Below, piece by piece: positions 431-20,943 of a stretch of 32,000 bases of DNA. Under the pieces are notes generated by a model. The model had not been told where the DNA came from and did not search any database. It saw nothing but the letters and a program-made list of their open reading frames with translations. This DNA comes from Flavobacteriaceae bacterium (GTDB lineage: Bacteria; Bacteroidota; Bacteroidia; Flavobacteriales; Flavobacteriaceae): positions 3,690,001-3,722,000 of the forward strand of contig OZ245049.1 in the NCBI GenBank assembly GCA_965224465.1, written 5' to 3'. Position 1 is the stretch's first letter. Each line of letters starts with the position of its first letter. A program made the translations under genes and the position numbers.

Positions 431-460
431 AAGGAAGTGTTACAAAACACTTCCTTTTTT
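431..460 (+). terminator. Rho-independent terminator-like hairpin between the two hcp paralogs
   Basis: aaggaagtgtt (431-441), loop acaa, aacacttcctt (446-456), followed by a T-run. Conserved at 20873-20902. Confidence 0.6.
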
Positions 461-502
461 GCTTTTAATTTTAATTAGTTTAATCATTATAAATAATATA
501 AA

Positions 503-898
503 ATGTCGTTTTTAGCTCAATTAACAATAGCCGATGATACCATGAATGTATTGCGATGTTCTTTTAATTTTGAACAAGGTGCAGATGCTGCTGGTAAACC
601 ATCACAAAGACCAAGTGGAGGGAAACTCATAATTTTAATAGAATCTACTAGTAAAACAGATTTTTTGGAATGGATGATCTCTCCTAATATGACCAAAAAT
701 GGAGAAGTTGTTTTTTATAAAAGAGACAACATGTCTAGTTTAAAAACCATTTCTTTTAAAAATGCCTACTGTTTGAGTTATCAAGAAGATTTTGATGCAG
801 AAGGGAACCAACCTTTAAAAACACGGATTGTTGTGTCGGCAAAAGAAATTACAGTAAAGGATACCACCTTTTTCAATAACTGGTTTGATAGAGAATAA
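503..898 (+). CDS. hcp: Hcp/TssD-like T6SS tube protein, second paralog (131 aa)
   Basis: MSFLAQL..VLRCSFNFEQGADAAGKPSQRPSGGKLIILIEST...EWM shares the Bacteroidetes TssD pattern MSF..L....VL.C.Y...Q..D..GRPS...GGKI...ES....L.WM with the 128-aa paralog. About 95% identical to 20944..21339. Lies directly upstream of vgrG. Confidence 0.85.
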   Translation: MSFLAQLTIADDTMNVLRCSFNFEQGADAAGKPSQRPSGGKLIILIESTSKTDFLEWMISPNMTKNGEVVFYKRDNMSSLKTISFKNAYCLSYQEDFDAEGNQPLKTRIVVSAKEITVKDTTFFNNWFDRE

Positions 899-927
899 AA
901 AAAGGGAAGCCTCTTAGTATGTACTTA

Positions 928-991
928 TACCACATACATTTCCAAGTGACGGTATAGAAATTATATCGGTTATTTTGGATTGTAATTGGTA
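928..991 (-). repeat. Miniature palindromic (MITE-like) copy of the hcp intergenic repeat, in inverted orientation
   Basis: The reverse complement reads taccaattacaatccaaaataaccgatata-atttctat-accgtcacttggaaatgtatgtggta. This is the left end of the 111-bp unit fused to the right end of the 51-bp unit. It is absent from the paralogous spacer at 21340-21424. Confidence 0.6.
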
Positions 992-1144
992 GTACAATAC
1001 ATGTTTGAGGATAAGATGTGCGATCTGTTAAAGCGCATTTCTTATGGAGAACCTTCTTAAAAGAAGGTTGAATATAGATAATGCACGAATAAACAGGAGG
1101 GGAATTAATTATTTTCTTTCGAGAACACTATTTATTTAGAAAAT

Positions 1145-2959
1145 ATGGCACTACAAAGCAACACAACTATAATTATTAACGGACAACAAATTTCAAGTTT
1201 TCAAAGCCTTAACTTACATCAGAAAATTGATGCATGCCATTCGTTAACACTTACGTTTAGAATGGACACACTTGAAGATATAGGAGAAGAACTTGCAACC
1301 AACAGTAAGGAGTTTTTAGGGGAGATAATTTCCTTGCAAACGATTCCTGCAGACGGTTTTGAAGATCGTTATGGCGAGTTGACGTTTAAAGGTATTATTA
1401 CCGAAATAAAAACGATAAAAGGGCATGAGGTAAGTGATGGGGATAAAATAGTTATAGAGGCAAGAAGCCCCGATTTTTTAACAAATGATGGCCCGCATTT
1501 TGCGTCTCACAACGATGTTTCCCTTTCAGAAATTGTTAATATTTCGTTTGAAGGCTATGATACTTCAAAATTAGAAGTAGACGTACGCCCTCAAAACAAC
1601 CCTAGTTTGCATTATTCGGTACAGCATAACGAAAGTGCTTTTACGTATGTAAGTAGACTTGCAGCACAATACGGAGAGTGGTTTTATTACGATGGAGCTA
1701 AATTAGTATTTGGAATGCCTGGTACCGAAGACTTAGAACTTACCTATGGATTTGATTTAGTAGAGTATCAGATACGTTTGATGCCTCAGTCCAACAATTA
1801 CAAAATATTTGCAAATGATTATCTAACCGATGAGGTACAAGAAAAATCAACAAGCGAAATCAATGCCGGTTTAAGAGGTTTTGGAGGCTTTGTTTCTGAA
1901 AAATCAAATGCCATTTACAGAAAAGAAACAAAAATTTGGCACAATCTATACAGCGATACAGAAGTACAACAGCGTTTAGATACAGCAGTGGAATTACAGA
2001 AAAAAGCGATTGATGTAAAACAAGTAAAAGTACAGGGGGTTTGTGATAATCCAGGGGTGAAAATTGGGAGCGTAGTTGTAATAGATGGGAATAGATACAG
2101 AATTATAGAGGTTACACATAGCAATAATGAAATTGGAGATTATACAAATAATTTTGAAGGAATCACCGCAGATATAAACGCATATCCATACACCAACATA
2201 AACGCATTTCCAAAAAGCGAAACACAGGTAGCTACCGTAAAAGAAAATGCAGATCCCGATGGATTGGGGCGCATAAGAGTGCAATTTCCATGGCAAGTGG
2301 AGTATAGCGAGTTAACCCCATGGGTGCGCATTGTAACACCACATGGAGGAGCCAATAAAGGATTCCATTTTATACCAGAAATTGAAGAAAAAGTATTGGT
2401 AGGTTTTGAAGGAGGGAATGCAGAACATCCTTATATATTGGGTGTTTTATATACAGGAAATGCCAAACCCGAAGCGTTTAAAACCGACACCAACGATGTT
2501 AAAATTATAAGAACCCGCAGCGGACACACCATTGAACTAAATGATAAAGATGGTGAAGAAAAAATAAATATCTACGATAACGAAGGAAGTATCATCACTT
2601 TTGATACCCAAGCAAAATCCTTGTATATACAAGCTACGGAGAATATTGAATTCCAAGCAAAGAATATTAAATTAAAAGCGAGCGAGAATATAGAACTAAA
2701 CGCCGATCAAGAAATTAAAATAGCAGCAACGGGTAACGCATTATTAGCATCAGAGGCAGTTATTAACATACAAGCAGAAAGTGATGTTAACGTAAGTGCG
2801 AGTTCGAATATAACCATAGAAGCCAGTAGTAAAGCGAATTTTAAAGGACAAAGTATTATTGTAGAAGGGCAAACATCAGCTGAATTTAATAGTGCCCAAA
2901 CCAAAATTACGGGTAGTGGAATGATTGATGTTTCAGGAGGAATGATAAAAATAAATTAA
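1145..2959 (+). CDS. vgrG: VgrG/TssI T6SS spike protein (604 aa)
   Basis: Has a gp27/gp5-like layout. Contains a conserved RIRVQFPWQ....TPWVRIVTPHGG..KGFHFIPEI.E.VLVGFEGGN.E.PYILG OB-fold segment. The C-terminus is a beta-helix of repeated ...I.I.A..NI.L.A units. Positioned between hcp and the PAAR gene. Confidence 0.92.
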   Translation: MALQSNTTIIINGQQISSFQSLNLHQKIDACHSLTLTFRMDTLEDIGEELATNSKEFLGEIISLQTIPADGFEDRYGELTFKGIITEIKTIKGHEVSDGDKIVIEARSPDFLTNDGPHFASHNDVSLSEIVNISFEGYDTSKLEVDVRPQNNPSLHYSVQHNESAFTYVSRLAAQYGEWFYYDGAKLVFGMPGTEDLELTYGFDLVEYQIRLMPQSNNYKIFANDYLTDEVQEKSTSEINAGLRGFGGFVSEKSNAIYRKETKIWHNLYSDTEVQQRLDTAVELQKKAIDVKQVKVQGVCDNPGVKIGSVVVIDGNRYRIIEVTHSNNEIGDYTNNFEGITADINAYPYTNINAFPKSETQVATVKENADPDGLGRIRVQFPWQVEYSELTPWVRIVTPHGGANKGFHFIPEIEEKVLVGFEGGNAEHPYILGVLYTGNAKPEAFKTDTNDVKIIRTRSGHTIELNDKDGEEKINIYDNEGSIITFDTQAKSLYIQATENIEFQAKNIKLKASENIELNADQEIKIAATGNALLASEAVINIQAESDVNVSASSNITIEASSKANFKGQSIIVEGQTSAEFNSAQTKITGSGMIDVSGGMIKIN

Positions 2960-2975
2960 AACAAATAAATAAATT

Positions 2976-3668
2976 ATGCCAGGACCAGCAGCAACAATAT
3001 CACACATGCACACATGCCCTATGTATAGTGGAACAAGCCCACATACTGGCGGCCCCATTATAGGCCCGGGAGTGCCAACAGTTTTAATAGGAGGAAAACC
3101 TGCCGCAGTAATGGGGGATCAATGTACCTGTTCGGGACCACCCGATGTAATTGTAGAAGGTGTTTCTACCGTATTAATTGGTGGGAGACCCGCAGCTACT
3201 ATGGGATCGAAAACAGGTCATGGAGGCGTAGTAAGCATTGGAGATCCTACCGTACTTATTGGTACAAGATGTAGTGCTCCTACCGCAATAATGCCCGTGA
3301 GTAAAATACCTTTTCCTAAAATATCTTTTAAAGATCGTATACTGACTTCTTTGTCGGGGAATTCATTGGCAGAAGCAGAAGCGAATCAAGCTGCTTTGAG
3401 AGAAGAAGAGGAAGGTGAGCCTCGTGTTTATAATTTACGTTGGATAAAAGAAGAAAGGCTAACCAAAAAATCTTCAGTACTAACACAAGTAACATTAAAG
3501 GCAAGTGTCGTTAATTTTGATGATGGAGAAAGTGTAACCTTTACTATTAATTTACCAACCAAAGAAAAAGGAGGGGATACAGAACAGGTAACATTAACTG
3601 GAACAGTAAGAGATAAAGAAGTACAAGTGGTTTGGGAAACTAAGGATAAACCAAAACAAACCTTATAA
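2976..3668 (+). CDS. PAAR-domain spike-tip protein with a variable C-terminal beta-rich extension (230 aa)
   Basis: The N-terminal 95 aa carry PAAR-type repeats (GGKPAAVMGD, GGRPAATMGS, VLIGG x2, PTVLIG). A Glu-rich linker (REEEEGEP) is followed by an 80-aa tail unrelated in sequence to the tail of the paralog at 23256..23969. Confidence 0.9.
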   Translation: MPGPAATISHMHTCPMYSGTSPHTGGPIIGPGVPTVLIGGKPAAVMGDQCTCSGPPDVIVEGVSTVLIGGRPAATMGSKTGHGGVVSIGDPTVLIGTRCSAPTAIMPVSKIPFPKISFKDRILTSLSGNSLAEAEANQAALREEEEGEPRVYNLRWIKEERLTKKSSVLTQVTLKASVVNFDDGESVTFTINLPTKEKGGDTEQVTLTGTVRDKEVQVVWETKDKPKQTL

Positions 3669-3787: not shown

Positions 3788-6640
3788 GTGGTTAAACCAG
3801 GTGTGCGAATAAATTTGATGCGTATAGCCTTGATAAATAGAACACCTAAGTTTACGCCTTTAATGCTAGAGGGGGTTGGGAAAGATGAATTTATGCCATT
3901 GGAGACCCCAAAAGGTGCTCCAGACGTAGAAGGGTTAAGCAACTATGTATATGCAAGTACAAGCTTAAGACCCGGGTTTTTATATGTAATCAACGAGAGT
4001 GATTCAGATGGTTGGAGTGAATGGGAAGTAGGATTAGGAGGGTGGCTTAAAGAGATAGATAAATCGCAAGCAGAAAGTGATTTTAGAAAAGTCACATCAG
4101 ATGCTGTAGTAATTGATCAGTATGTTGCAGAACCTACAGATGTTTTGTGGTTTGCGTACTCAGAAATACAATGGAGTGCAGATTATTTTAAAAGCATGCG
4201 TGATGATAGTTCTAAACGGGGCACTCGTATGCAAAAATATGACTTAATTAAACATGTTAATAATGAGTCTCAAAACGATGCAGCATCTTGGGATATAATG
4301 AAAAATAATTTTCTGATTATCCCCGAAAATAAATTGGATTATAATGCTACACAACAAAATTATACAATAGCTTCTTTTGATGAAACCAATAATACCGAAA
4401 GTTATAAACTGGATGCTATCCTATGTCTACATGATCCAGTAGGGGTTTTAGAAGAATTGTCGAATTATTTAAGGTATCTTTGGATTGAAATGGATAGTCT
4501 TTTGATATCTATGAAAACAGGGATTACACTGAGTGAAGCAGAAAATTGTTTAAGAAATAATAAAGATCCAAGAAAGTTACAAAACATTGAAGACCTGAAG
4601 CAAATTGAAGCATTGTACAATATAGGAGTAAACTTAAGAGGAGTAGCTTACGCCAATGATAAAAATAGAGAAGATCTTATCGAAGCTTGGTGGGGAATTG
4701 ATGTAAAACGACTCGACAAGGTCTTAGCAGTAGAAGATCGATTAGTGATTAAGAAAAAAATAGCTAAAGGAAGAGCATTTTTGGTTAATTTTGTAGATAG
4801 TGATTACTATGGGAAAATATTAGATGACTATCTAACCAACTGCGATGAAAATATTGAAGATGCCAAGTATACAAAAAGCGGATGGTTGTCCCAAATAGGG
4901 CAAATGCCTAATGATAGGGATGCTCTTATGGAAACTAAAGAGGAGGCAAGCGAGTGGAAAGCCAATGATGATATAGGTAAACAATTTATTAAAGACACAC
5001 TAGAAGGAAAAAATAATATTGGTAAAATTTTCACTACTCCTACATTAACAGAACAGGTAGAAGGAAAAGTGAATTGGGGGAAATACTTTGCTATTTCTGA
5101 TAATTTTTTTGAGTTTTATAAAACTGCTTTTAAAGATGGTGCTAATAGTCTTGAGAAAATAGTAAAAGTACTTAATACTACCCGAATAAAATTAAATGGT
5201 ACGATGATAGTTGCTACTTATCAGATTACAGATATAGCCACAGAGTTTAGAAAAACAGATATAGGGCGTTCTGATTTTATAAAGAAAACTTTAAATATTA
5301 ATAAAAAATCCATCAAGGCATTTAAAAAAATAAGTAGTAAATTCACAAGTAAGTTTGATAAACTACTAAAAACTAAGCAAATAACTTTCGGTAAAGCTTT
5401 TCAAAAGGTACTGAAAAATGATTTACTAGATTTTGTTGATGAGTTTAGTGGAAACACTTGTTGGGTAAAACTACTGCGTAATATCAGTATGGTTAATCTG
5501 GCGATGACCAGTGTAAAGATATTTAAATCAGATGATCCTGCTCAGCTTGGGCTGAATGTATCTAAGTTTGGTATTGCGATTGCAGATGCTCACATCACCT
5601 TACGGAACGTTAAATCCTTAGAAATAAACAGTAAAAAGGCTTTAAAAATATTTACTACAGATACTAAGTTGTTAGCAAAAAGAGTAGGTTATGCGGGGGC
5701 ATTAGTAGATGCTAGTGAAGCTGCATATAATTTTTGGCAGCGCGATGTTGATGCTGGTATGGCGTATGGGGGAGCAGCAATTAGTGGAGCACTAGGGACA
5801 CTATGCATATTAGCAGTGTCTAATTCTTGGCATCCTGGGGGGTGGGCACTACTGATTCTTGCATTGGCTCTGGGTATTTATGCGAATACTCTAGAAGATT
5901 CTCCATTAGAAACTATTGCAAAAAATGGAGTGTTTGGTCCAGTACCTAGTAAATGGTTGTTTTGGAGTAGTGTGGACTTTTCTAAAGATAAAAGTTATTT
6001 AGAATTGATACATAAACATGCCAATCTAGAGGTACGTAAGTCGCTACATAAAACAGGTTTTTCTGAATGGGTGGATTTACCAGTCCAGTACATTAATTTG
6101 TTGGATATATTGATAGGTGGGCGAGTGCAGCTCAAATCATCTAAAGAAGTATCTGCTGGAGATGGTAGAAGTTTGTATGCCGATAAGGTTAATATGAAAT
6201 TTGAATGTTTTATTATTAACGAAGCAAAAGCTGAACTTATTTTCGGGTGTTTTTTACAAGAAAAAGATCAAGTAGATTATGAAATTTACTATTCTCCTGC
6301 AGGACTAGGGGGAGATTTCACCTGTTATAAGCCTAGTTATTTAGGAGTATGTATAGAAATGATTACAGAAAAAGATAAACCTACTAAGGCTATAATTACG
6401 ATTCCGATGCACCAATTGCAACATACATCCTCGGGGGTGTTAATGATTATGGCCCGTGTAGCTTTTGCAGGAGGGCAGTATTTTCCTGTACCTAATATTA
6501 ATACACCAAGATATTCAGCGTCTATTATTCCTATGATACGCACTGATTATAGTTATGGATCGTATTATACCGATGGTATTAACAACCGAGTGATTATAGA
6601 TACCAAACAAAAATTATTAAACAAAAAAGAATGGAAATAA
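3788..6640 (+). CDS. Large T6SS effector candidate: MIX-like N-terminal region, glycine-zipper TM helices, beta-rich C-terminal domain (at least 950 aa)
   Basis: LRPGFLYVI (3965-3991) and FAYSEIQWS (4151-4177) fit the MIX core and C-flank consensus. LHDPVG is shared with the cassette-B paralog. TM segments are GMAYGGAAISGALGTLCILAV and GGWALLILALALGIYA. The annotated start is a GTG, but the frame is open from 3650 and stays homologous to the paralog upstream of 3788, so the 5' end is uncertain. Confidence 0.6.
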   Translation: MVKPGVRINLMRIALINRTPKFTPLMLEGVGKDEFMPLETPKGAPDVEGLSNYVYASTSLRPGFLYVINESDSDGWSEWEVGLGGWLKEIDKSQAESDFRKVTSDAVVIDQYVAEPTDVLWFAYSEIQWSADYFKSMRDDSSKRGTRMQKYDLIKHVNNESQNDAASWDIMKNNFLIIPENKLDYNATQQNYTIASFDETNNTESYKLDAILCLHDPVGVLEELSNYLRYLWIEMDSLLISMKTGITLSEAENCLRNNKDPRKLQNIEDLKQIEALYNIGVNLRGVAYANDKNREDLIEAWWGIDVKRLDKVLAVEDRLVIKKKIAKGRAFLVNFVDSDYYGKILDDYLTNCDENIEDAKYTKSGWLSQIGQMPNDRDALMETKEEASEWKANDDIGKQFIKDTLEGKNNIGKIFTTPTLTEQVEGKVNWGKYFAISDNFFEFYKTAFKDGANSLEKIVKVLNTTRIKLNGTMIVATYQITDIATEFRKTDIGRSDFIKKTLNINKKSIKAFKKISSKFTSKFDKLLKTKQITFGKAFQKVLKNDLLDFVDEFSGNTCWVKLLRNISMVNLAMTSVKIFKSDDPAQLGLNVSKFGIAIADAHITLRNVKSLEINSKKALKIFTTDTKLLAKRVGYAGALVDASEAAYNFWQRDVDAGMAYGGAAISGALGTLCILAVSNSWHPGGWALLILALALGIYANTLEDSPLETIAKNGVFGPVPSKWLFWSSVDFSKDKSYLELIHKHANLEVRKSLHKTGFSEWVDLPVQYINLLDILIGGRVQLKSSKEVSAGDGRSLYADKVNMKFECFIINEAKAELIFGCFLQEKDQVDYEIYYSPAGLGGDFTCYKPSYLGVCIEMITEKDKPTKAIITIPMHQLQHTSSGVLMIMARVAFAGGQYFPVPNINTPRYSASIIPMIRTDYSYGSYYTDGINNRVIIDTKQKLLNKKEWK

Positions 6641-7485
6641 AAATTGATAAGAAGTATGACACCGCAAAATATTTTAAACGTTTTATTAGGTTACCATATG
6701 TTATTTATGAGGTGCCAACAGAACAAGAGATAGATATTGAAGATAATAAGAAATATGACGAACAATTTACAAATGAAATAATTAGAGAATTTACACCAAG
6801 TAGTAAAAGTAGTTATATAATTGATGTATATATATATAGTATAGTAGCTGCATTTTTTGGTTTATTAATGCCGATAGCAGGAACAATATTTGAAAAAGGA
6901 CTCATGTATTTATGGGTGTATGTTATTTATGTTTTAATTTCCCTGTTTTTTATCAGAATTACCTATTATTACTGGAAAAAATATCAAGTAGCTCCAGAGT
7001 TGGCACATATTACATTTGATAGAATGAATCAGATGATTGTTTTGCCTAGGGCAGGAGAATTTGAGTATTTTAAAATACCATTTAAACAACTAAGAGTATC
7101 AATAGAAGGGGTTGGAGGTTCCGTAATGTCATATATGGGTAAGCATTTGATTTTTTATAGAGGGTATTCTATGAACCTGATTAAGATGCATAGTGCCAAA
7201 TTAATGATGGGAGGTTTTCCTAATAATCCGAAACAAGATTGGTCATTCTATGTATGGTATATGGATAAAAATCGCCCTTTGCCACCTGGGCTGGCTTTTG
7301 ATGCGTATAGAGAAGTTGATTTTGAAAGAAGAAAGAAGGCAGGGTTTCCTCCTCCATTATTCAAAAGTTTAGTACCAACCCCAGAGGCAAGTCAGGAGCA
7401 ACAATTACTACGTGAAACTTTTTGGAAAGACGAAGATTATATAGCTACAAAAAAAGAATCACATTTTAGTCTTTGGAGAAAATAG
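6631..7485 (+). CDS. 2-TM membrane protein of the WYMDKNRPLP family; candidate immunity protein for the upstream membrane effector (284 aa)
   Basis: Its start overlaps the effector stop by 10 nt (atggaaataa). Two hydrophobic helices (IYSIVAAFFGLLMPIAGTIF, LWVYVIYVLISLFFIRI). The C-terminal motif WSFYVWYMDKNRPLPPGLAFDAYREVDFERRKKAGFPPPLF is shared with 17096, 18755 and 27327. Confidence 0.55.
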   Translation: MEIKIDKKYDTAKYFKRFIRLPYVIYEVPTEQEIDIEDNKKYDEQFTNEIIREFTPSSKSSYIIDVYIYSIVAAFFGLLMPIAGTIFEKGLMYLWVYVIYVLISLFFIRITYYYWKKYQVAPELAHITFDRMNQMIVLPRAGEFEYFKIPFKQLRVSIEGVGGSVMSYMGKHLIFYRGYSMNLIKMHSAKLMMGGFPNNPKQDWSFYVWYMDKNRPLPPGLAFDAYREVDFERRKKAGFPPPLFKSLVPTPEASQEQQLLRETFWKDEDYIATKKESHFSLWRK

Positions 7486-7778: not shown

Positions 7779-9281
7779 TTATTTATCAACAGGCTTCCAA
7801 TTTTGAGGCAGTAACTCCGAAAGTTTATTAGCCTTATGTTCTGGTAATCTATTAAGGACATCACATAGCCACGTATGTGGGTTTACGTTATTCTTTTTGC
7901 AAGTAGCAAAAAAGCTATAAAATAGAGCTATGTTTTGTGCGGACTCATGACTGCCAGCAAAGAGATAATTTTTTCTGCCAATAGCTAAAGGTCTTATGGC
8001 ATTTTCTATATTATTGTTGTCTATTTCAAACCTGCCATCATCGATGTATAGTTTTAGGTTTTGCCATATTTTAAGAGTATAAGCAATTGCTTTTCCTATG
8101 GCACTTTTAGGCAGTACGTTTTTTCGCTCTTTTGTAAGATAAATTTCTATTCCGTCTAAAACAGGTGATGCATGTTTTTCTCTATATGCTTTAGTTTGCT
8201 CAATAGTTAATTCTTGTTCTTTTATTTTACGTTCTATCTTGTATAGCTTTTGAATTTCCAACAAAACAACATCCGCTCTTTTAGGATCATTATCCAGCGC
8301 CTTCTCAAAATACCGCCTAGCATGAGCCATGCAACCTAAAAGAGTAATTTCTCCTTTTGTTGTTAAGTTTTGGTATGCAGCATACCCATCGGACTGTAGT
8401 GTCCCATTGAAATCTTTAAAAAACTCTTCTGGAACAACTTTTCCTCTCCCTTTATTGTATTCAAAAAGAACTAAATTTTTAACAGGATTTCGATACACCC
8501 ACATATACCCTCTGTGTGTTGATTTTTTCTTGTCTTTATCTAAAACCTTTATAGGAGATTCGTCTGCTTGAATATAATTGGCATTTTCTAAAAACTGAGC
8601 CTTAAATGTATCGTATAAAGGAGCGATAAGCTCCGAACTTTTAGATACCCATCCTCCAATTGTTGATTTACTTACTTTTAAATCTTGTCGTTTAAAAATT
8701 TGAATTAATCTGTAAAGTGGTAAATGGTCTACAAATTTTGAAATAAGTATAAAGGCCAATAAACTTGCTGATGCATTTCCTTTAGGTATCGGTAAGCTTG
8801 GTAATTCTGCTATAACAACGCCTTTTTCTTCCGGAAGTGCATATTTAGGTCTTACAATTCGTCTTACAAAAACGGAAAGAGGCGTTATTTCTAAAAGTTC
8901 TGTAACTTCTTCTCCTATTTTTACAGCTCCTTCTTCTATGTGCTTAGGCTCTATAATCTCTTCTACTCGCGGAAAATGCGCAGGTATAGAAGAGCGAACA
9001 GGTTTTTTCTTTCCTTTCTTCTTTTGTTTTCTTTCGTAGATTACAATATGTTTTTTGTATGCCTCTTCTTTCTCAGCTATTATTTTTCCGAAAAGCGACA
9101 ATTGATTTGTGTCAACAGGGATAAAACGTTCGCTTTTAGACCCGAAAACCATTCTTCTAAGCTGCTCGTATTGCTGCTTAATTTCAGCTAGTTCTTGAGC
9201 TGTTTTTTCAAGTTCAATCTTTAAAATTACCAGCTCTTTTTGTATGTCTATTGTATTGTTTTCCACACTATAAATATACAA
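7779..9281 (-). CDS. tnpC: IS66-family transposase TnpC (500 aa)
   Basis: N-terminal coiled coil (LEKTAQELAEIKQQYEQLRRMVFGSKSERF) followed by a DDE-type core. The C-terminal AIGRKNYLFAGSHESAQNIALFYSFFATCKKNNVNP block is typical of IS66 transposases. Confidence 0.9.
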   Translation of the reverse strand: MYIYSVENNTIDIQKELVILKIELEKTAQELAEIKQQYEQLRRMVFGSKSERFIPVDTNQLSLFGKIIAEKEEAYKKHIVIYERKQKKKGKKKPVRSSIPAHFPRVEEIIEPKHIEEGAVKIGEEVTELLEITPLSVFVRRIVRPKYALPEEKGVVIAELPSLPIPKGNASASLLAFILISKFVDHLPLYRLIQIFKRQDLKVSKSTIGGWVSKSSELIAPLYDTFKAQFLENANYIQADESPIKVLDKDKKKSTHRGYMWVYRNPVKNLVLFEYNKGRGKVVPEEFFKDFNGTLQSDGYAAYQNLTTKGEITLLGCMAHARRYFEKALDNDPKRADVVLLEIQKLYKIERKIKEQELTIEQTKAYREKHASPVLDGIEIYLTKERKNVLPKSAIGKAIAYTLKIWQNLKLYIDDGRFEIDNNNIENAIRPLAIGRKNYLFAGSHESAQNIALFYSFFATCKKNNVNPHTWLCDVLNRLPEHKANKLSELLPQNWKPVDK

Positions 9282-9756: not shown

Positions 9757-10659
9757 CTATTTTACAAAGTAGATATTAAAGCAAATATCCGCATAAAAGT
9801 ACTTGAAATTAAAGGAGATTACGCACAAATAAAAGTAACATCTATTACTGCAACCTTAGTTAGAGATACCGATATTAATGATAACGTAAAACCATTTAAT
9901 AGCAATAAACTTTATACTATCAAAAATCTTACTACGGTTAATAAAATAAAGCATTTAATGGTCTTGCAACTAAAGATGCCACATTCAATACAAAACAAGT
10001 AAAAGCACCAAGAAATTGGAGAACAAATTTAAACAGAACTGTTACCTTTTACCCAAATGGCTATGGTAAAGTGATTTGGATAGAAAAAACATCTATTTCC
10101 AAAATAGCAGAAAAAATAAAAAAAATTAGATATAATTACCTCAATTATTCCTGACTATTTTTTAACAGATAAACAAAAATACGAAACAGTTGAAAGAGAA
10201 GCCAAAACAGGAGAAAAAACTACATTATATGTAGATGTATGTAAGGCATATATCGAAGTCCCTTTTAGAACCGATGTAGAAGAAGTAACTGTAGAAAAAG
10301 AAAAAGTAGTTGACTTACGTAAATTTAAAAAAGCAAAAGACGATAAAAAAGACCTTTGGTATAAAGTAGTATTAGATGATACAACTAGTAGCCAATGTGT
10401 AGCAGTAAAAGGCTGGGTAAAAGAAAAGGATCTTGACAAATTTAGCGCTTACGATTGGCAAAAATTTGGTTTTAAAGATCTAGACGCAGGTAATGAATAC
10501 ATATACTCTGTAAAAGACTTACGTGAGGCAACAGATAGTGCCGATTTTGTAACCGAAATTTGGGATAAAACAATAGATACAGATGGCAATAAAGTATTAG
10601 ATATACTAGAGCTTATTAGAGCGTTTAGTAAACCAGAAATAGCACAAAAACTATCTCGT
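9757..10659 (+). pseudogene. Continuation of the IS-disrupted effector gene, with at least two further frameshifts
   Basis: Collinear with 28335..29229. There is a 5-nt aataa duplication near 9941-9950 (ttaataaaataaagcattt versus ttaataaagcattt). There is a 2-nt shorter, degenerate stretch near 10105-10140. In-frame stops occur at about 9998 and at 10117. Confidence 0.8.
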
Positions 10660-12303
10660 TTGGTATGTAAGCACAAAAATGAATGGTCTTATACTATGGA
10701 CGAAATAAAACCAGAAGTAAAAGAACGCTGTGATTTTGGTATACAATTAGAAGAAGTTACAGCCGAAAAACAAAAACTAGAAACCCAAAGGGATGATAGT
10801 TTAGCCAAAATGGAAGCCAAAATAGAAAATTTAATGTGGTGGGATGAGGCAAGTAAAAAAACCTACACAGCACCCGTAAAAGAAGAAGATAAAACAAAAA
10901 CGAGTAGCACCAAAAGACCTTCTATGTTGCCAGAAGGTACAGTGGTAGAAGAAATACCACAAAAAGTTGTTGTACCTTTAGACAATAAAACAACAGCAGC
11001 TAAACCAGATGCTAAACCAACGGAAGATAGTATACCAACGACAAGTACAACCGCTGCTCCAGCACCAGAAACTAAAGTAGAAGAAAAAGAAGTGCCGCCA
11101 AAACGTATGTTTCCTAAAAGCAATATAGTACATCACTTTCATCCAATTGCTTGGGTGGAGCAGATGAGACTTGTTTTTGGGGATGAGGGTATTTGTGTCT
11201 GTGAAGCTAGAGTTAGGGCTTTTATGACAATGTTACGAATTGGAGAGGGGACTTTAGAAGATATTGGTTATGAAACTATTGTCGGTGGTTCTCACTTTAA
11301 AGATTATGGTAAAAATTTTAGCAACCATCCTGAAATTTACATAGAAAAATATGATTCGACTGCTGCTGGCGCTTATCAAATAACAAAGACGAATTGGAAT
11401 GATATTGCTTTTGTAAAATGGAGAGAAAATAAAAAAGTAATAGATTTCTTTCCAATAAGTCAAGATAAATATTGTTTTTATCTTTTGCAAAAAAAGAGAA
11501 AAGCAATAGATTTAATTAAAAAAGGATATATTAACGAGGCAATATTTAAAGTAAGAAAAGAATGGGCAAGTTTACCTGGTTCTGGTCATGGACAAAGAGA
11601 AGAAAAATTATCAATTGTAATCAATAAATATATTGAATTTTATAAGAATGAGTTAAAAGGAATTACACAATTAAAAATTCCTTATGGTGGATTTGAAAAG
11701 TTTGGGTTTGATTGTAATTGTCAAAATAATAATGAAACTGATACTACTTGTGGCAAAACACATATTGATGTCACAAATTTAATGATTTTTTATGACCAAG
11801 GAAGTGGAAATTCTAATTGTAATAAAACATGTAAATCCATAATGCTCCAAATGCAGGTTATTGCAGAAGGAGCAACTACAAAAGCCAAGATTAGACCAAA
11901 TCTTCCAGGTTCTTATTATCAAATTGCTGAAGAAAATTTAACAAGAGATGGGTTTGCTTTTGATGAACAAAAAAGTATAGAAGGAATCTCTTATTTAGAT
12001 AAAGCATTAGAACATGGAGACCCAATACTTTTTGGTGTAAATCATACATATAAATATCGTAAATTCGGAACAATCAATGATGACTCAACTGACCATTATG
12101 TGATAGTTACTGGTAGAAAATGTTTAGATGGAAAAACTATTTATACCTATTGGGATGTTGGTACTAAATATGGCGGAAAAGGAGACTATTATTTTACATT
12201 AGAGAATAATAAATTAACATCATCTTCGAGATCAAAAAAATATACAGTAACACAAATTAGAAGAAATTTAAACTTAAATGGAAAAATTATTCAATATAAT
12301 TAA
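10660..12303 (+). CDS. C-terminal toxin portion of the disrupted effector: Pro/Thr/Lys linker, FHPIAWVEQMR junction, lambda-lysozyme/GH104-like lytic domain, and an uncharacterised Cys/His C-terminal domain
   Basis: MLRIGEGT..GYETIVGG....HP......STAAGAYQI....W......FFPISQDKYCFYLL......I..G.I..AI......WASLPGSGHGQ resembles lambda-type lysozyme / lytic transglycosylase families. The frame is open from 10120, but the first start-like codon is TTG at 10660 and the next is ATG at 10696. Expression is therefore doubtful. Confidence 0.55.
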   Translation: MVCKHKNEWSYTMDEIKPEVKERCDFGIQLEEVTAEKQKLETQRDDSLAKMEAKIENLMWWDEASKKTYTAPVKEEDKTKTSSTKRPSMLPEGTVVEEIPQKVVVPLDNKTTAAKPDAKPTEDSIPTTSTTAAPAPETKVEEKEVPPKRMFPKSNIVHHFHPIAWVEQMRLVFGDEGICVCEARVRAFMTMLRIGEGTLEDIGYETIVGGSHFKDYGKNFSNHPEIYIEKYDSTAAGAYQITKTNWNDIAFVKWRENKKVIDFFPISQDKYCFYLLQKKRKAIDLIKKGYINEAIFKVRKEWASLPGSGHGQREEKLSIVINKYIEFYKNELKGITQLKIPYGGFEKFGFDCNCQNNNETDTTCGKTHIDVTNLMIFYDQGSGNSNCNKTCKSIMLQMQVIAEGATTKAKIRPNLPGSYYQIAEENLTRDGFAFDEQKSIEGISYLDKALEHGDPILFGVNHTYKYRKFGTINDDSTDHYVIVTGRKCLDGKTIYTYWDVGTKYGGKGDYYFTLENNKLTSSSRSKKYTVTQIRRNLNLNGKIIQYN

Positions 12304-13183
12304 AATTTTGATTCTAGTCGTAATGCTAGTTTCTTGTAAAAAACATATTTCAGGCTTAATAGTAGAAAATAAGCAGAATATTACATCATATAATGATTTA
12401 ATAGGTAAAACATTTTTTGCCCTACAAAATGAAGAAGGACAATTGGTTTATGATAGTTATGGTGTTAATGATATGACAGAAATGATACGTTTTAGACAAA
12501 CGAAAATCAACCATTTCAAACCAATGGATTGGCATAATTATGATATAATTAATCATGTTTCAAAAAAAACAATACAAATTAAAATAAAATATGAGAACAA
12601 ATCAGTAGATGAAGGTTTAAAATATTTTCTAAAATATGACAAAGAAAAACATCTTCTATACTCTTATCCAAGTGATAAGTGTAAAAACCCAAAAACATAT
12701 GTTGACAGTATATACCTAAACACAATTAGGTATAAAAAATATCCTAAAGTAAGTGATATTAATGTAGAAGATAATGTTATAAATAAAAAAATTAAAATTA
12801 ACATTGAATCTAAGGAAATAGAAATTTTAATTCCTTTTTTAGAAGAATATATTTATCATGAAGACAATATCGCAGGTAGACAAGGAATTTCAGAAACTTT
12901 AGAAGTAAAACTGTTAAAGGGCACTAATGGTAATTTATACTTTGTTTTTGGAGAGGGTAAATGTGGAGCCTGTCCTAATTTCTCAGCTCTTTATGATTTT
13001 AAAGGTAAAAACCTATCATATCAATATTCTATTAGACAGAATGTGAGAGGGTCAAAAATAATAATTTCAAAGGGTAATGATAGTGAAGTATTTAAGAAAT
13101 ATGGATTGTCAGAGAGTAATATAAACATTCAAATAAATAATCAAGACACACCTACTTATTTAATAAAAAATTGGTTTAATTAA
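12278..13183 (+). CDS. Lipoprotein (301 aa), candidate cognate immunity protein
   Basis: Signal peptide with lipobox: MEKLFNIIKILILVVMLVSC. Overlaps the toxin ORF end by 26 nt. No similarity to the other two lipoproteins in equivalent positions. Confidence 0.5.
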   Translation: MEKLFNIIKILILVVMLVSCKKHISGLIVENKQNITSYNDLIGKTFFALQNEEGQLVYDSYGVNDMTEMIRFRQTKINHFKPMDWHNYDIINHVSKKTIQIKIKYENKSVDEGLKYFLKYDKEKHLLYSYPSDKCKNPKTYVDSIYLNTIRYKKYPKVSDINVEDNVINKKIKINIESKEIEILIPFLEEYIYHEDNIAGRQGISETLEVKLLKGTNGNLYFVFGEGKCGACPNFSALYDFKGKNLSYQYSIRQNVRGSKIIISKGNDSEVFKKYGLSESNINIQINNQDTPTYLIKNWFN

Positions 13184-14665: not shown

Positions 14666-15709
14666 ATGAAGCATCTATCAATTATAATTTTAACTATTTT
14701 CTGTTTATTTTCTTGTAAAAACAAAAAAAATGAAACAGTAGTAGTTATACAAAATAACCAATCAAAACATCAAAATATTATTGATTATATTAATAATAAA
14801 TCTGTTACTGAGTTTTATAAATTTGATGAAGATTATTTTATAAATAATACTCTTGAAGGTATTTGTAATGACACTACAAACACCATAGGGATATTTAGTA
14901 TTATCTATTATGACAACGAAAAAGACATTACTCAACTGTACAAAGAAAAAACACCAGTAAAACAACAGCAAAAATTATTTGACTCTTATAAAAAGGTTGC
15001 CTTTTTTATTGATAAAAAATATCTAGAAAAATTGCCGCATCATCATGAAGAAGGCATGGCAGTAGGCACAATATATGACCCTATTAATCCATATATAGCA
15101 CAAATGTTTATCTGGCAAGATGATGACTGGATATTTAATAAAGATATTAAAATTACAGATTATAAAGATTATGTTAGGTTAATAAGTTATTTGAGACCTA
15201 TAAATTTGTCAAAAAGAAAGAAAGAATATGAACTTAAAGATATTGTTGTTATTGAAGAACTAAGAGGATATTATAATAATGATAACATAGAGGATCTAAT
15301 TTGGGTGTTAGATATTAGTACTGATAATTCTATGGGAGGACGAGCAAAAAAAGAATATAGATTACAAGTGTTTTTAGGTGCCAAAATAAAAAATAAATAC
15401 AACTTTTTATTTACATCTGATTTAATAATACCTTGTAATTATTGTGAAAACTGGAAAAATGATTCTGAATATTCATATTATAATTTAAAATTTGAAAATC
15501 AAATTTTTAGTTTTTTTACAAAATCAACATTGGATAAAATAGGAACTAGCAATAAATTTACTTTTAAATATAAAGATGATAAAATGTTGCTTAACAATAT
15601 AGAAAAAGAAACCGTTCATTATAGCGAAAATGATAGAGTAGAAAAAGAGACAATAACAAACTTAAAACAAGTAAGTTTAGAATGTTTTAATGTTTATGAC
15701 GAATGGTAA
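14666..15709 (+). CDS. Lipoprotein (347 aa), candidate cognate immunity protein
   Basis: MKHLSIIILTIFCLFSCKNKKN lipobox. Starts 3 nt after the toxin stop. Confidence 0.5.
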   Translation: MKHLSIIILTIFCLFSCKNKKNETVVVIQNNQSKHQNIIDYINNKSVTEFYKFDEDYFINNTLEGICNDTTNTIGIFSIIYYDNEKDITQLYKEKTPVKQQQKLFDSYKKVAFFIDKKYLEKLPHHHEEGMAVGTIYDPINPYIAQMFIWQDDDWIFNKDIKITDYKDYVRLISYLRPINLSKRKKEYELKDIVVIEELRGYYNNDNIEDLIWVLDISTDNSMGGRAKKEYRLQVFLGAKIKNKYNFLFTSDLIIPCNYCENWKNDSEYSYYNLKFENQIFSFFTKSTLDKIGTSNKFTFKYKDDKMLLNNIEKETVHYSENDRVEKETITNLKQVSLECFNVYDEW

Positions 15710-15716
15710 ATCCAAA

Positions 15717-16027
15717 TGTAAATTTAAAAAAGCAAAAGACGATAAAAAAGACCTTTGGTATAAAGTAGTATTAGATGATACAACTAGTAGCCAATGTGTA
15801 GCAGTAAAAGGCTGGGTAAAAGAAAAGGATCTTGACAAATTTAGCGCTTACGATTGGCAAAAATTTGGTTTTAAAGATCTAGACGCAGGTAATGAATACA
15901 TATACTCTGTAAAAGACTTACGTGAGGCAACAGATAGTGCCGCTTTTGTAACCGAAATTTGGGATAAAACAATAGATACAGATGGCAATAAAGTATTAGA
16001 TATACTAGAGCTTATTAGAGCCTTTAG
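15717..16027 (+). pseudogene. Internal fragment of the hydrolase-effector N-terminal region (KFKKAKDDKKDLWYKVV...ELIRAF), truncated by an IS66 remnant
   Basis: Near-identical to 10318-10628 and 28887-29197. The listed ORF 15690..16070 is a chimera that borrows an ATG inside the preceding gene and a stop inside the IS end. Confidence 0.8.
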
Positions 16028-16065: not shown

Positions 16066-16097
16066 CATAAAAAAACCTCGATTTATTGATCGAGGTT
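16066..16097 (-). terminator. Intrinsic terminator of the remnant tnpC
   Basis: aacctcgat (16074-16082) pairs with atcgaggtt (16089-16097). On the minus strand the stem is followed by a T-run, the complement of aaaaaaa at 16067-16073. Confidence 0.55.
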
Positions 16098-16604
16098 TAA
16101 ATTTTGTGGAAATAGCTCACTTAATTTTTGAGCATTGTAATCAGGGATTATATCCAGTATTTTTTTCATCCATTTATAGGGGTTTACTTGGTGTTTTTTA
16201 CAAGTCCCAAAAAAGGAATAGAACATCGCTGCATTTTTTGCAGCATCATGGCTACCTGCAAATAAATAATTTTTACGTCCAATAGCTAATGTTCTGATAG
16301 ATCCTTCTACTAGGTTATTATCTAGTTCTAAAGTACCGTCATACAGGTAGGCTTTTAAGTAGTCCCATCGTTTTAATGTATAAGTAATTGCTTTTCCTAG
16401 TGGACTTTTCGGTAAGCTTCCTTGGGTATTATGGATCAACCATTTTATAAATGTATCCATTATTGGTTGTGCTTTATCTAGGCGATAAGCATGCCGTTGC
16501 TCAGGAGTAAATTCCTGGTTTTTACAATGTCGTTCTATCCAAATTGGAGGTAATGATAGAGCTGGTGCTACCTTTACTTCTGCCAATATTACAAGAGTAA
16601 CCAT
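16083..16604 (-). pseudogene. tnpC: Truncated IS66 transposase TnpC (C-terminal 150 aa only)
   Basis: LPKSPLGKAITYTLKRWDYLKAYLYDGTLELDNNLVEGSIRTLAIGRKNYLFAGSHDAAKNAAMFYSFFGTCKKHQVNP aligns with the C-terminus of the 500-aa TnpC at 7779..9281, at roughly half identity. No DDE core is present upstream. Confidence 0.8.
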
Positions 16605-16614
16605 CCAAACCTCA

Positions 16615-17091
16615 TTCCGTCAATTTTTATGGTATGAAGATCAATATGAATATCAGTCTTTTATAGTAGACACACGTACAGGTGCTTATGAAGAAATTCC
16701 TTTTGAAGAATTAAGAGGGGAAGTTAATATTGTAAAAGAAGAAGGTAGTATTCCTAGAACCGAAACAAGCATACGTATACCTGAATGGGTACATGAGAAA
16801 AGGAAAAAACATGAATATAGGTTTACTATTTTTCAACTAGTATTTGTATGTAGATTGCTACTAAATGAACAACATAAAAAATATTATCCACATACTTATG
16901 TAGGCAAAGATCGCTATATGGGTATAAAAATGCAATTATCACAATCTAGAACTCATAATTTTAAAAACATGAATGGATTACTATTCCCTCCGAAACCAAC
17001 CGAGTTTAAAGGGTATTATCATAAAAATGTAGAGGTAGATACTCTAGATAAACTATTAAAATGGGCTAAAGAACCCGTATTAAATATATAA
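16615..17091 (+). pseudogene. 3' remnant of a third MIX/TM-type effector paralog (C-terminal about 158 codons, no start)
   Basis: A continuous frame runs from the IS remnant to the stop. KKYYPHTYVGKDRYMGIKMQL...EVDTLDKLLKW parallels NHYFPYRLLDKPERYIGAKFKL...VFDTLANLKLDKTW at the C-terminus of 25207..27333. It is followed by a WYMDKNRPLP-family gene, as in the intact loci. Confidence 0.55.
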
Positions 17092-17095: not shown

Positions 17096-17791
17096 ATGGC
17101 AAAAATTAAAAAGCGTTTTGGTAAATGGGGAGGTTATTTGCCACATTGTATTGATGGACGACCTACAATAGATATAAAAAAAGAAGAAATGGATGGAGAA
17201 TATTATATTAAAGCTAATGATGAGTTTTTTATAATGAATAATGATTTATTTGGTAATATATATCTATATATAGGGTTAGCCCTTTATTTCTTTATGTTAT
17301 TAACAATAGCAATAAGACTTTCTGCAGATAAAGATGTTGGTTTTATTTTTTTATTTTTTTTATTTTCTTTTGGAACATTATCTATCATATATAATTATAC
17401 AGCTCCAGTAAAAAAGATTATTTTAGATAGACTCAATGGGATCGTTACTTTTCCCAACTTTTTATGGGGCAAACCTATTTGCATGCCTTTTAAAGATATG
17501 TTGGTAGCATGGTCAGTAAAAAATTCAGGAATCAACCCTTCAGGACCTTCGCTTTCTGCTTTTCATCCCAACGGTTTTTTTAGCACCGATATTATGGGGG
17601 CAGATGTGTTGGAAGATTGGTATTTTATAGTATGGTATATGGATAAAAACCGTCCTTTACCTCCGGGTACTGCTTTTGATGAATATCGTGAGAAAGATTA
17701 TCTGCGAAGAAAATCTGAAGGCTTTCCAGAAGGGTTATATCCTTGTAGTATTCATATTCCAGAATACAAGCCTTCAAAAAAAAGAAAGTAA
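17096..17791 (+). CDS. 2-TM WYMDKNRPLP-family membrane protein (231 aa), candidate orphan immunity
   Basis: Helices IYLYIGLALYFFMLLTIAIRL and VGFIFLFFLFSFGTLSIIY, followed by LDRLNGIVTFPNFLWGKPICMPFKDM and WYFIVWYMDKNRPLPPGTAFDEYREKDYLRRKSEGFPEGLY. Confidence 0.6.
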   Translation: MAKIKKRFGKWGGYLPHCIDGRPTIDIKKEEMDGEYYIKANDEFFIMNNDLFGNIYLYIGLALYFFMLLTIAIRLSADKDVGFIFLFFLFSFGTLSIIYNYTAPVKKIILDRLNGIVTFPNFLWGKPICMPFKDMLVAWSVKNSGINPSGPSLSAFHPNGFFSTDIMGADVLEDWYFIVWYMDKNRPLPPGTAFDEYREKDYLRRKSEGFPEGLYPCSIHIPEYKPSKKRK

Positions 17792-17858
17792 AAAACAAAG
17801 AATTGTAACTCTTATTAATTAGAAAATAATATGATAACTATTAAGAATTGTTAGTGTC

Positions 17859-18761
17859 TTTAATAAACGGGATGTTGACGCCAGTGTTGCTTGGAAGTTG
17901 GCAGGCGTTGCTTTTACAGTAAGTACTGCGGCAGGTATTTGGGGAGGAACTATTTTTTTATTATCAGGGCCTGTAGGTTGGATTGCCTTAGGAATTGGTT
18001 TAATAGGAGTGGTTTCAGCAAATATTTTTATAGACACAGACTTGGAATTCTATTTTAAACACTTTTTATTATCCGATCATAAAAAATTACCTATTGGTAA
18101 TAACAGTCCTATGGCATACAACCGTCTTGTCTATAAAAGTATTGAGACTTTAGTAGAGAGTGAGGATGAAGACATTAAAAATAGCCTAATGTATCCTGAG
18201 GATGCTATTGCTAGTTTACACGATCTTACGGTATGTACCAGCATTAATTACTATGTAGAAAACATGAAAATGAAATTTGCAGGCAGACGTGGTAGAAGTA
18301 CGGGGTATTATGTAAGTAGTTTTGGTATTACTATGAATTTTAATCATTTTTTATACGATGTAAATCAATTAGAAGCAAAAGGTATGATAGTGCGTCATAC
18401 CTGGGTTAATAGTATTGGAAGTAATGCCGAAGAATTTAATTTAATATTAAAAGATGCCAAAATAATAAGCATGAAAAATGGACAACAACAACTTTTAGTA
18501 ATTGTAGCAATACCTTACGAAAAAAGAAAATTAATAAAAGACGATAAAGATTTAGAAATGGTACTAGCCATACGTGTAAGAATTAATAAAGAGAAAAACC
18601 ATTACTTCCCTTACAGACTACTAGACAAACCTGAACGCTATATTGGTGCTAAATTTAAGTTATATAAAAACATATACACTAATTCAGGGGAAAATAACAC
18701 AGATAATCAAAATTTAGTTTTTGATACCTTAGCGAACTTAAAACTTGATAAAACATGGTAG
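17859..18761 (+). pseudogene. Orphan C-terminal toxin module (TM helices plus beta-rich domain) of the cassette-B membrane effector; no N-terminal loading region and no ATG
   Basis: Homology to 26431-27333 begins at FNKRDVDAS. Only 4 aa differences occur over the last 287 residues. The frame is open only from 17838 and the first start-like codon is TTG at 17898. Confidence 0.75.
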
Positions 18762-19543: not shown

Positions 19544-19570
19544 AAGTTGATAGCGCAAAGCAATGCATTC

Positions 19571-19591
19571 GCGCGGATTTTAAATCCGCGC
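19571..19591 (+). promoter_or_regulatory. Conserved GC-rich junction hairpin
   Basis: gcgcggattt-t-aaatccgcgc, preceded by the 8-bp palindrome aatgcatt. The stem is GC-rich in an otherwise AT-rich context. Found in the same position after the immunity gene as at 28143. Confidence 0.4.
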
Positions 19592-19601
19592 CAGTAACTG
19601 A

Positions 19602-19901
19602 GTGTCTGCTAGGAATGTTTTGCGGAAAGGTTTACGGAAAAAGGTGATTTATACATTAAGAGAAAATAGTGAAGAAGAAGATTTAATACCAAAAGTTTTA
19701 GACTACTACCTAACGGACCTTAATCGAAACAAAATAGATAAAACAAAAATAGGTGAGAAAGTTTTTTTGAATATTAAAACCAAAAAATTAATTGGCGAAT
19801 TGCTATCTATTTCTTTGAATGATAAAAAGGCTGATTTTAAATATAAAAATGAAAGACGACCAAATGATACTATTAACCTGTCTCGAATTTTTTGGAAATA
19901 A
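19602..19901 (+). CDS. Hypothetical 99-aa protein that shares only the 17-codon leader with the hydrolase effector
   Basis: GTG start. MSARNVLRKGLRKKVIY is identical to 28174 and then unrelated. The remainder (KIDKTKIGEKVFLNIKTKKLIGELLSISL) has the alternating pattern of a small beta-sandwich. It may be a truncated or frameshifted gene. Confidence 0.3.
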   Translation: MSARNVLRKGLRKKVIYTLRENSEEEDLIPKVLDYYLTDLNRNKIDKTKIGEKVFLNIKTKKLIGELLSISLNDKKADFKYKNERRPNDTINLSRIFWK

Positions 19902-20902: not shown

Positions 20903-20943
20903 GCGTTTAATTTAATTAGTTTAACAAATATAAATACTATAAA

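Follow-up and report, generated by a model that had tools for sequence, protein, structure and literature searches.

What is the role of the genes that directly follow VasX-like toxin genes in type VI secretion system (T6SS) loci of marine Bacteroidota, and why is one short part of their products nearly invariant when the rest diverges? The question is raised by a 32,000-nucleotide window of a Flavobacteriaceae bacterium genome (assembly GCA_965224465.1, contig OZ245049.1, positions 3,690,001 to 3,722,000 of the forward strand; coordinates below are those of the window), in which the open reading frame (ORF) 6631-7485 begins within the end of an intact VasX/Bte2-family toxin gene. Three further ORFs of the window encode proteins of the same layout. 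Comparison of their sequences and gene neighbourhoods makes it quite likely that the family consists of inner-membrane proteins conferring immunity to pore-forming T6SS toxins of the VasX/Bte2 family, and that it is a marine-Bacteroidota branch of the Bti2/Bfi2 kind.

Family genes and toxin genes in the window and in other Bacteroidota

The family members of the window are all encoded on the plus strand. Member 1 (6631-7485, 284 amino acids) is the immunity candidate in the cognate position of the intact toxin; member 2 (17096-17791, 231 amino acids) is an orphan found 3' of a C-terminal toxin remnant; member 3 (18755-19543, 262 amino acids) is one half of an orphan module of toxin tail and immunity gene; and member 4 (27327-28115, 262 amino acids) is located 3' of a frameshifted VasX-like toxin gene. 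The common layout comprises a variable N-terminal tail, a hairpin of two transmembrane (TM) helices, a beta-rich domain and the near-invariant block WYMDKNRPLP..G..FD..R..D..RRK..GFP. In the full-length alignment of the four ORFs 36 columns are invariant; they cluster in this block, where they make up WYMDKNRPLP, G, FD, R, D, RRK, GFP and L. In pairwise BLASTP ORF 6631 matches ORF 17096 over the full length (E=6e-22) and ORF 18755 over the 61-residue C-terminal block only (E=1e-21), a similarity well above chance, and the matches of the family hidden Markov model (HMM) in the window are exactly these four ORFs. The positions and the single layout given by an initial annotation, made from the sequence of the window, are confirmed.

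Two of its details have to be modified. It had described a strongly divergent family of four; the shared layout stands, but ORFs 18755 and 27327 are 92% identical and sit in a 1.8-kb DNA duplication of 96-100% identity (17850-19650 and 26420-28220), so that the window holds three divergent lineages and one recent duplicate. The segment annotated as (F/L)(D/N)R.(N/D)G.V.FP is present, but it is looser in ORF 6631 (FDRMNQMIVLP) and its R alone is invariant family-wide. In member 1 the TM hairpin is encoded by nucleotides 6805-6990 of the plus strand (residues 59-87 and 94-120, joined by a loop of 6 residues) and belongs to the part that is hypervariable in the family (18-19% identity), while the invariant C-terminal module is encoded by nucleotides 7228-7416 (plus strand, residues 200-262, DWSFYVWYMDKNRPLPPG.AFD.YR..DFERRK..GFPPPL...PTPEA..EQQ) and has about 70% identity family-wide. 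Further family paralogs are present in the source genome outside the window.

Each of the four genes lies directly 3' of the tail of an effector with MIX domain and TM helices, be it intact, frameshifted, orphan or a remnant, as annotated initially and as confirmed by the VasX matches. The intact toxin gene (3788-6640, plus strand, 950 amino acids) matches PF20249 (VasX_N, 4.7e-17) and, partially and below the cutoff of that model, BTH_I2691_fam (4.6e-25); its product consists of an N-terminal VasX_N/MIX part, a helical region that includes hydrophobic helices, and a C-terminal part rich in beta structure. The VasX_N scores of the two toxins of the window that carry this domain are 62.9 and 51.4 bits, with a gathering cutoff of 27. 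The second of these genes (23981-27333, plus strand) is split into a 400-residue ORF with the VasX_N domain (23981-25183) and a 708-residue ORF in a different frame (25207-27333). The break at 25183/25207 is a frameshift, which denotes either a pseudogene or a sequencing error; the immunity gene of the split toxin and the duplicated orphan module of tail plus immunity gene (17850-19543) are both intact. The toxin tail of this module (17850-18761, plus strand), made up of the last TM helices and the C-terminal domain, is a copy of the last 303 residues of the split toxin and is 97% identical to residues 406-708 of ORF 25207-27333. The remnant (16600-17091, plus strand) preserves the final 163 codons of a third gene for a VasX-like toxin and matches the last 162 residues (920-1081; 3.2e-63) of a 1081-residue VasX-like protein of Tenacibaculum sp. 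A30 (locus L039). A truncated IS66-like transposase fragment (16083-16604, minus strand) is found directly 5' of this remnant, which in turn precedes ORF 17096.

The start of ORF 6631 overlaps the stop of the upstream toxin gene by 10 nucleotides (ATGGAAATAA), those of ORFs 18755 and 27327 overlap the upstream toxin ORF by 7 nucleotides (ATGGTAG), and a gap of 4 nucleotides separates the toxin remnant from ORF 17096, all as claimed at the outset. The family gene is probably co-transcribed with the toxin gene whose product it would neutralise, and translational coupling is probable too.

Genes for Hcp, VgrG and PAAR proteins are present 5' of both full toxins of the window. Hcp (TssD) is encoded at 503-898 (plus strand), with further copies at 20284-20670 and 20944-21339, the VgrG spike protein at 1145-2959 (plus strand) and 21425-23239, and the PAAR proteins at 2976-3668 (PF05488) and 23256-23969, both on the plus strand. 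The two Hcp-VgrG-PAAR copies are 93-100% identical (456-3400 and 20897-23680) up to a left boundary at about nucleotide 3400, inside the PAAR gene, and identity returns about 60 nucleotides past the family gene (7545, corresponding to 28130), where 7545-7750 matches 28130-28335. Between these boundaries, and flanked by conserved sequence, the two copies carry unrelated alleles of the PAAR C-terminus, of the toxin and of the family gene, from which it follows that exchange moves toxin and family gene together as a single cassette. The N-terminal part of the two PAAR proteins is identical and the C-terminal third varies with the toxin; the variable part is probably a toxin-specific adaptor.

To see how far this arrangement holds elsewhere, 76 loci were compared, 72 found by scanning species-representative genomes and four by exact look-up. 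Family ORFs were flagged by HMM, and VasX-like, Hcp, VgrG and PAAR ORFs by phmmer, with four toxin queries for the VasX-like ones. The loci contain 206 family ORFs, all co-oriented with VasX-like ORFs and grouped in 96 arrays, 86 of which have at least 1 kb of upstream sequence and can be assessed. An array is located directly 3' of a VasX-like ORF in 67 of the 86 cases (78%), the neighbour being full-length (at least 900 amino acids) in 44 and a VasX fragment in 23. The distance from stop to start is mostly between -35 and +4 nucleotides, where overlaps may be slightly overestimated since the ORF caller uses the first start codon. The usual order, for instance in Tenacibaculum maritimum, is Hcp-VgrG-PAAR-VasX followed by one or more family genes; in this species the neighbour of the family gene carries the same Pfam VasX_N record, and one cognate copy is accompanied by up to three more. 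By our array count tandem arrays contain up to seven copies, and single loci have up to eleven family ORFs (L014, L061, L037). Orphan arrays are common, and modules of toxin fragment plus family gene occur among them, a signature which is classic for the immunity genes of polymorphic toxins. The position after toxin genes, conserved across genera, and the tandem and orphan arrays together are the pattern expected of such immunity genes.

Nineteen of the 86 arrays have no VasX-like ORF directly upstream. Several of these are continuations of other arrays, separated from them by our gap and fragment rules, and about 8-10 are true orphans without a toxin nearby, next to housekeeping genes such as DUF2339, a Na/H exchanger, DeoC/UvrC or a DEAD helicase. 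The family had been annotated as always coupled to effector tails; coupling holds for most arrays, but not for these orphans. In this neighbourhood survey of motif homologs, named beforehand as a test, a minority alone is unlinked to a toxin.

Some of the array borders carry other genes. In a Saccharicrinis locus (L004, 1698-8987) a family member and a VasX fragment stand at the end of an effector locus that has a PAAR-Tle1-like lipase and three DUF2931 genes, which looks like a mixed immunity or orphan island. In some T. maritimum strains (L002, 11255-14758, although not L001 and L003) a Lamassu-like pair (AAA_23/LmuB_C plus MC3) is located directly 3' of the immunity-gene array; the array borders a variable defence island.

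The family is small. A single-sequence search returned 453 relatives, all unnamed or annotated as hypothetical, none with a Pfam domain, from marine Flavobacteriia and Bacteroidia including Aquimarina, Tenacibaculum, Cellulophaga, Zobellia, Saccharicrinis and Ancylomarina. With a 48-member profile, 580 clusters at the 50% identity level were retrieved from 1.84 billion representatives, and the listed records with a named organism, in the profile search and in a pattern scan, are exclusively from Bacteroidota. The motif W[YFW]M[DN][KR]N is present in 119 of the 120 best matches. Two kinds of extension occur: members of roughly 330-400 amino acids (e.g. L012 9956-10972, L033 5378-6382 and L047 9686-10894) carry an additional C-terminal stretch of roughly 70-140 residues that is rich in beta structure (...W.R..Y.F.DG..VY...PP...), and five members (e.g. 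P0070 and P0232) have an N-terminal four-cysteine, zinc-ribbon-like extension.

The Bti2/Bfi2-like core and its predicted action

Likeness to Bti2 was judged against the NCBIfam profile NF053700 (bfi2_fam), the equivalog model of the protein that makes Bacteroides fragilis immune to Bfe2/Bte2. In the window, three of the four proteins match this profile (E-values from 6.6e-3 to 5e-8, the best being that of member 4), as do 15 of 48 diverse members at E<0.01 (best E=1.2e-11) and 6 of 10 members from Bacteroidales or Marinilabiliaceae at E<=0.1. The alignments run from the end of the N-terminal tail over the hairpin and the beta domain to its closing helix, at profile positions of about 111-280 out of 294, and take in 45-90 non-membrane residues. 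In the L012 protein residues 38-203 align with profile positions 122-280, and the motif starts at residue 199. The profile thus ends where WYMDKNRPLP begins, which suggests that Bfi2 has the core and is devoid of the module. Scans of the four window proteins and of the 48 diverse members against Pfam, NCBIfam and PADLOC gave nothing else but hydrophobic-segment noise. We regard distant homology to Bti2/Bfi2 with the same genomic role, though not as an equivalog, as probable. Two proteins from Bacteroidales (L044 9875-10720 and L047 9686-10894) have weak matches to the NCBIfam model STM3941_fam (E 0.004-0.02) over the hairpin and the first strands; this model may describe a distant relative of the core, or the matches may be noise.

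Bte2 is a pore former of the VasX family that acts from the periplasm and requires the Rnf complex of the target cell as receptor; Bti2 gives protection against it, and bti2 is dispensable where Rnf is absent (PMC12718326). In Dataset S3 of that work (Ratner et al. 2025) Tenacibaculum, Aquimarina, Cellulophaga, Pseudozobellia and Zobellia are listed with a Bte2 ortholog, without an rnf locus and with the entry 'Immunity (bti2): Yes'. Neither the architecture nor the motif of the family is described in the consulted parts of PMC12718326 or in the Pfam and NCBIfam models searched. An adjacent predicted immunity gene had thus already been noted in these genera; in the sources consulted, the invariant module and its contrast with the hypervariable remainder seem to be undescribed. 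The candidate new immunity family of the initial annotation would be new with respect to its module, but its core matches bfi2_fam and bti2 had been scored in these genera before. As in B. fragilis GA3, the gene adjoins that of a VasX-family, MIX-containing pore former of a Bacteroidota T6SS, and the product is presumably an inner-membrane protein facing a toxin that arrives from the periplasm. Bti2/Bfi2 differ by being without the 60-residue invariant module and the optional C-terminal extension, and, as the hosts here are marine genera listed without rnf, the receptor dependence of the toxin probably differs as well.

More distant parallels are found in Proteobacteria. Tke5 of Pseudomonas putida is a VasX-family inner-membrane pore former, and its immunity protein Tki5, likewise encoded next to the cognate toxin, neutralises the helical pore-forming region (PMC12909789); Ptx2 of P. 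aeruginosa is a pore former of the same class, which acts on the inner membrane from the periplasm, and its structure is cited in both PMC12909789 and PMC12718326. Neither Tki5 nor TsiV2 has detectable sequence similarity to the family, and the proteobacterial loci, unlike the present ones, carry a DUF4123 adaptor gene. TsiV2 we take to be the immunity protein of a proteobacterial VasX/BTH_I2691 toxin, encoded next to it.

The tight coupling to the toxin gene could also be explained by a secretion chaperone or adaptor, which would shield the toxin helices in the producer or load the toxin on PAAR/VgrG in the manner of Tap/DUF4123 or Eag proteins. Proteobacterial VasX-family toxins need Tap adaptors (PMC12909789), and with no DUF4123 or Eag homolog found in the window by Pfam the adaptor role is formally vacant. 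The known adaptors are, however, soluble and usually encoded 5' of the toxin, whereas the family protein is a membrane hairpin encoded 3' of it; tandem orphan arrays without full toxins would be senseless for a chaperone, the PAAR C-terminal region which co-varies with the toxin is a better adaptor candidate, and the family core resembles an immunity protein, Bfi2. On these grounds the chaperone role was rejected as very improbable.

An AlphaFold2 model of member 1, computed with a 48-sequence alignment, is one compact unit (mean predicted local distance difference test, pLDDT, 93; predicted template modelling score 0.88). It consists of an N-terminal tail with short strands, including residues 50-56, the long helical hairpin (residues 59-87 and 94-120), five strands within residues 124-176 followed by a short helix, one more strand and a helix at 200-211 which carries WSFYVWYM, and finally the RPLPPG loop, a helix at 224-236 (R..D..RRK) and an ordered proline-rich stretch. 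The loop between the two membrane helices has a mean of 4.7 residues and 0.3 lysines plus arginines, as against about nine in each of the N-terminal tail and the beta region. From this distribution of charge and the zinc-ribbon-like extension of some members we infer an N-in/C-in topology with both termini in the cytoplasm and a tiny periplasmic loop.

The initial annotation had seen in the TM hairpin and the following beta-rich segment an echo of the YdbS/YdbT-type bacterial PH-domain proteins (Pfam bPH_2, PF03703), in which a small beta-rich domain with a helix cap likewise comes after a TM hairpin; YdbST has been linked to resistance against a membrane-active bacteriocin. The order of strands and helix in the model (five to six strands, then a helix) is compatible with a PH-like fold. 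The bPH models of Pfam match none of the 48 members at E<=1 and none of the four window proteins, and the bPH structure 3b77 appears five times in the Foldseek results with E 1.1-2.8 and a template-modelling score of about 0.2, so that the resemblance remains an impression, unsupported by these searches.

The same echoes, and the copies that adjoin housekeeping genes, might suggest a housekeeping or stress protein of the envelope, of the bPH/YdbS-like kind, that is merely found near T6SS loci. Against it stand the 78% of assessable arrays directly 3' of a VasX-like ORF, the highly variable copy number with multiple paralogs per genome, and the small size and restriction to Bacteroidota of the family. 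A match to a housekeeping family, named beforehand as evidence against an immunity role, was absent from the Pfam, NCBIfam and PDB searches. A housekeeping role was rejected, its chance of being right appearing slight in the extreme.

If the immunity reading is correct, the protein would insert into the inner membrane as a two-helix hairpin, and the N-terminal tail and the beta domain behind the hairpin would form one globular unit in the cytoplasm. A toxin delivered to the periplasm by a sister cell would drive its hydrophobic helices into the inner membrane, where the hypervariable hairpin, possibly together with the variable cytoplasmic domain, may bind them inside the bilayer or on its trans side and so block formation of the conducting pore, as is the case with the immunity proteins of pore-forming colicins. 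The variable part would decide which toxin allele is recognised. With the bulk of the protein in the cytoplasm and the toxin arriving from the periplasm, neutralisation would have to happen in the bilayer itself or on its inner face. The immunity proteins of the colicin pore formers (Cai, Cei and the Ia/E1 type) intercept the toxin helices in the bilayer; they are small, are integral to the inner membrane, show allele specificity and have their genes beside that of the toxin. The likeness is a mechanistic analogy only, since their sequences are unrelated, they have three to four TM helices and no sizeable cytoplasmic domain, and they have no family-wide invariant module. Among the blocks of the toxin it is that of the TM helices which the divergence of the immunity variable region tracks best (Spearman 0.55, as against 0.27 for the MIX block).

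A number of points weigh against the immunity reading. The bfi2_fam scores are 13-35 bits among those listed (15.9-32.7 in the window, 35.3 for L047), with a cutoff of 350 bits for the model, and part of each score comes from the hydrophobic helices, so that homology is probable rather than proven. The correlation of toxin and immunity divergence is modest and confounded by phylogeny. Some 8-10 true orphan arrays beside housekeeping genes have no toxin near them. The predicted cytoplasmic bulk is on the side opposite to that of toxin arrival and would necessitate interception in the membrane or after partial translocation, for which the colicins offer an analogy, and immunity proteins do not typically carry an invariant module. 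The initial proposal of a membrane-embedded immunity protein for a membrane-targeting toxin nonetheless has comparative support in the toxin linkage, the orphan arrays, the cassette exchange and the weak Bti2/Bfi2 homology.

The invariant module

The mean pairwise identity within the family is 0.22 in the N-terminal tail, 0.18 in the first TM helix, 0.11 in the inter-helix loop, 0.19 in the second TM helix, 0.24 in the beta region and 0.70 in the module (residues 200-262). The module is what unites the family, as becomes evident from a search with the variable 203 residues of ORF 27327, which retrieved only 36 clusters as against 453 for the whole protein. The motif is present in 34 of the 35 clusters checked, the sole exception being a truncated fragment, and no Bti2-like protein without the module was found among the full-length matches of this search.

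Such conservation could in principle be kept at the DNA level, the block serving as a recombination handle or being homogenised by gene conversion among paralogs; it is located at the distal edge of the variable cassette of toxin tail and immunity gene, and the paralog arrays supply many conversion partners. The synonymous sites of the block have diverged, however. Between loci the 32-residue core of the module has a mean of 27 identical residues, about 45% of the codons of which differ synonymously, with a nucleotide identity of 0.76, and among the three lineages of the window the nucleotide identity of the block is 66-73%. The recombination boundary of the window, moreover, is about 60 nucleotides 3' of the gene and outside the block. 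Conservation at the DNA level was rejected on this evidence and has next to no likelihood; identical residues with synonymous divergence mean that selection on the protein keeps the module as it is. Nor can the module be tracking the toxins, since mean identity is at most 35% in every toxin block.

No solved structure resembles the protein. Foldseek searches of the PDB gave no match at E<0.3, neither for the full-length model nor for residues 118-284 alone (167 residues, pLDDT 86.8), a part that takes in the soluble C-terminal segment of about 130 residues which the initial annotation had singled out for structural comparison. Matches to AcrA/MexA membrane-fusion proteins were due to the long helical hairpin alone and were discarded. 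Sequence searches of the PDB with the 4-member and the 48-member profiles likewise gave nothing at E<0.3, and the best of these matches, MJ0480 and signal peptidase complex subunit 2, were judged to be due to chance.

The 60-residue module, rich in proline, arginine and aromatic residues, most likely has a function common to all alleles. It may anchor the protein at the cytoplasmic face of the membrane through its arginines and aromatics, mediate oligomerisation, or bind a conserved component of the cell. In a bolder version of the immunity reading, to which we assign a low probability, a fast-evolving recognition half (N-terminal tail, hairpin and beta domain) would be joined to a constant cytoplasmic module engaging a conserved cell component, such as a membrane complex exploited by the toxins where Rnf is absent, or a quality-control protease. 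The marine genera in question generally carry Na+-NQR, which is related to Rnf.

The corresponding alternative to simple toxin binding is a two-part immunity in which the constant domain is itself active, the variable half recognising the toxin and the module recruiting or blocking a conserved host factor, for instance a receptor complex analogous to Rnf that the toxin needs or a membrane protease that removes the toxin. The gap between 70% identity in the module and at most 35% in any toxin block makes co-evolution of the module with the toxin unlikely, and the synonymous divergence indicates purifying selection at the protein level. There is also a precedent for host-factor dependence in the Rnf requirement of Bte2 and the dispensability of bti2 without Rnf, and the marine genera here are listed without rnf (PMC12718326). 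On the other side, Bfi2 confers immunity without the module, which is thus not intrinsically required for this kind of immunity, and the module could be a mere structural or membrane-interface element. An active constant domain is, on balance, rather improbable.

Neighbouring candidate effector genes and meaning of the family

Past the distal cassette boundary the first locus looks rearranged through insertion sequence activity. The segment 7545-7750 matches the start of ORF 28174-30891, and a full IS66-family transposase gene (7779-9281, minus strand) is located just past the 5' end of this copy of the downstream effector gene. Three 100% identical 300-nucleotide copies (10319-10618, 15718-16017 and 28886-29185) encode a common N-terminal segment (KFKKAKDDKKDLWYKVVLDD...) of large, secreted-looking proteins. 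ORF 28174-30891 contains a Peptidase_M23 domain, ORF 13197-14663 matches CHAP and GH19 below threshold, and ORF 10660-12303 is without Pfam match; the ORFs that come after them (30921-31847, 14666-15709 and 12278-13183, respectively) all have a lipoprotein-like signal peptide. These pairs probably encode modular effectors that degrade the cell wall, together with periplasmic lipoproteins for immunity.

Immunity genes next to T6SS toxin genes are ordinary; what is unusual is the combination of a hypervariable recognition half with a near-invariant, structurally unmatched module. VasX/Bte2-family pore formers are widespread T6SS weapons, and about 580 diverged sequences together with a very confident AlphaFold model give an entry to the immunity mechanism of VasX-family toxins, where the natural split into hypervariable and invariant parts offers targets for swaps and mutations mapping specificity and mechanism. 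If the bolder version is true, immunity to VasX-type toxins would be partly mediated by a host factor and not by simple one-to-one toxin binding, and the module would be a new fold or motif without solved relative. With the WYMDKNRPLP pattern or an HMM, annotators could name hundreds of proteins now called hypothetical, and could find VasX cassettes and islands of orphan immunity genes in marine Bacteroidota. The range of the family includes the fish pathogen T. maritimum, where the tandem arrays probably shape competition between strains.

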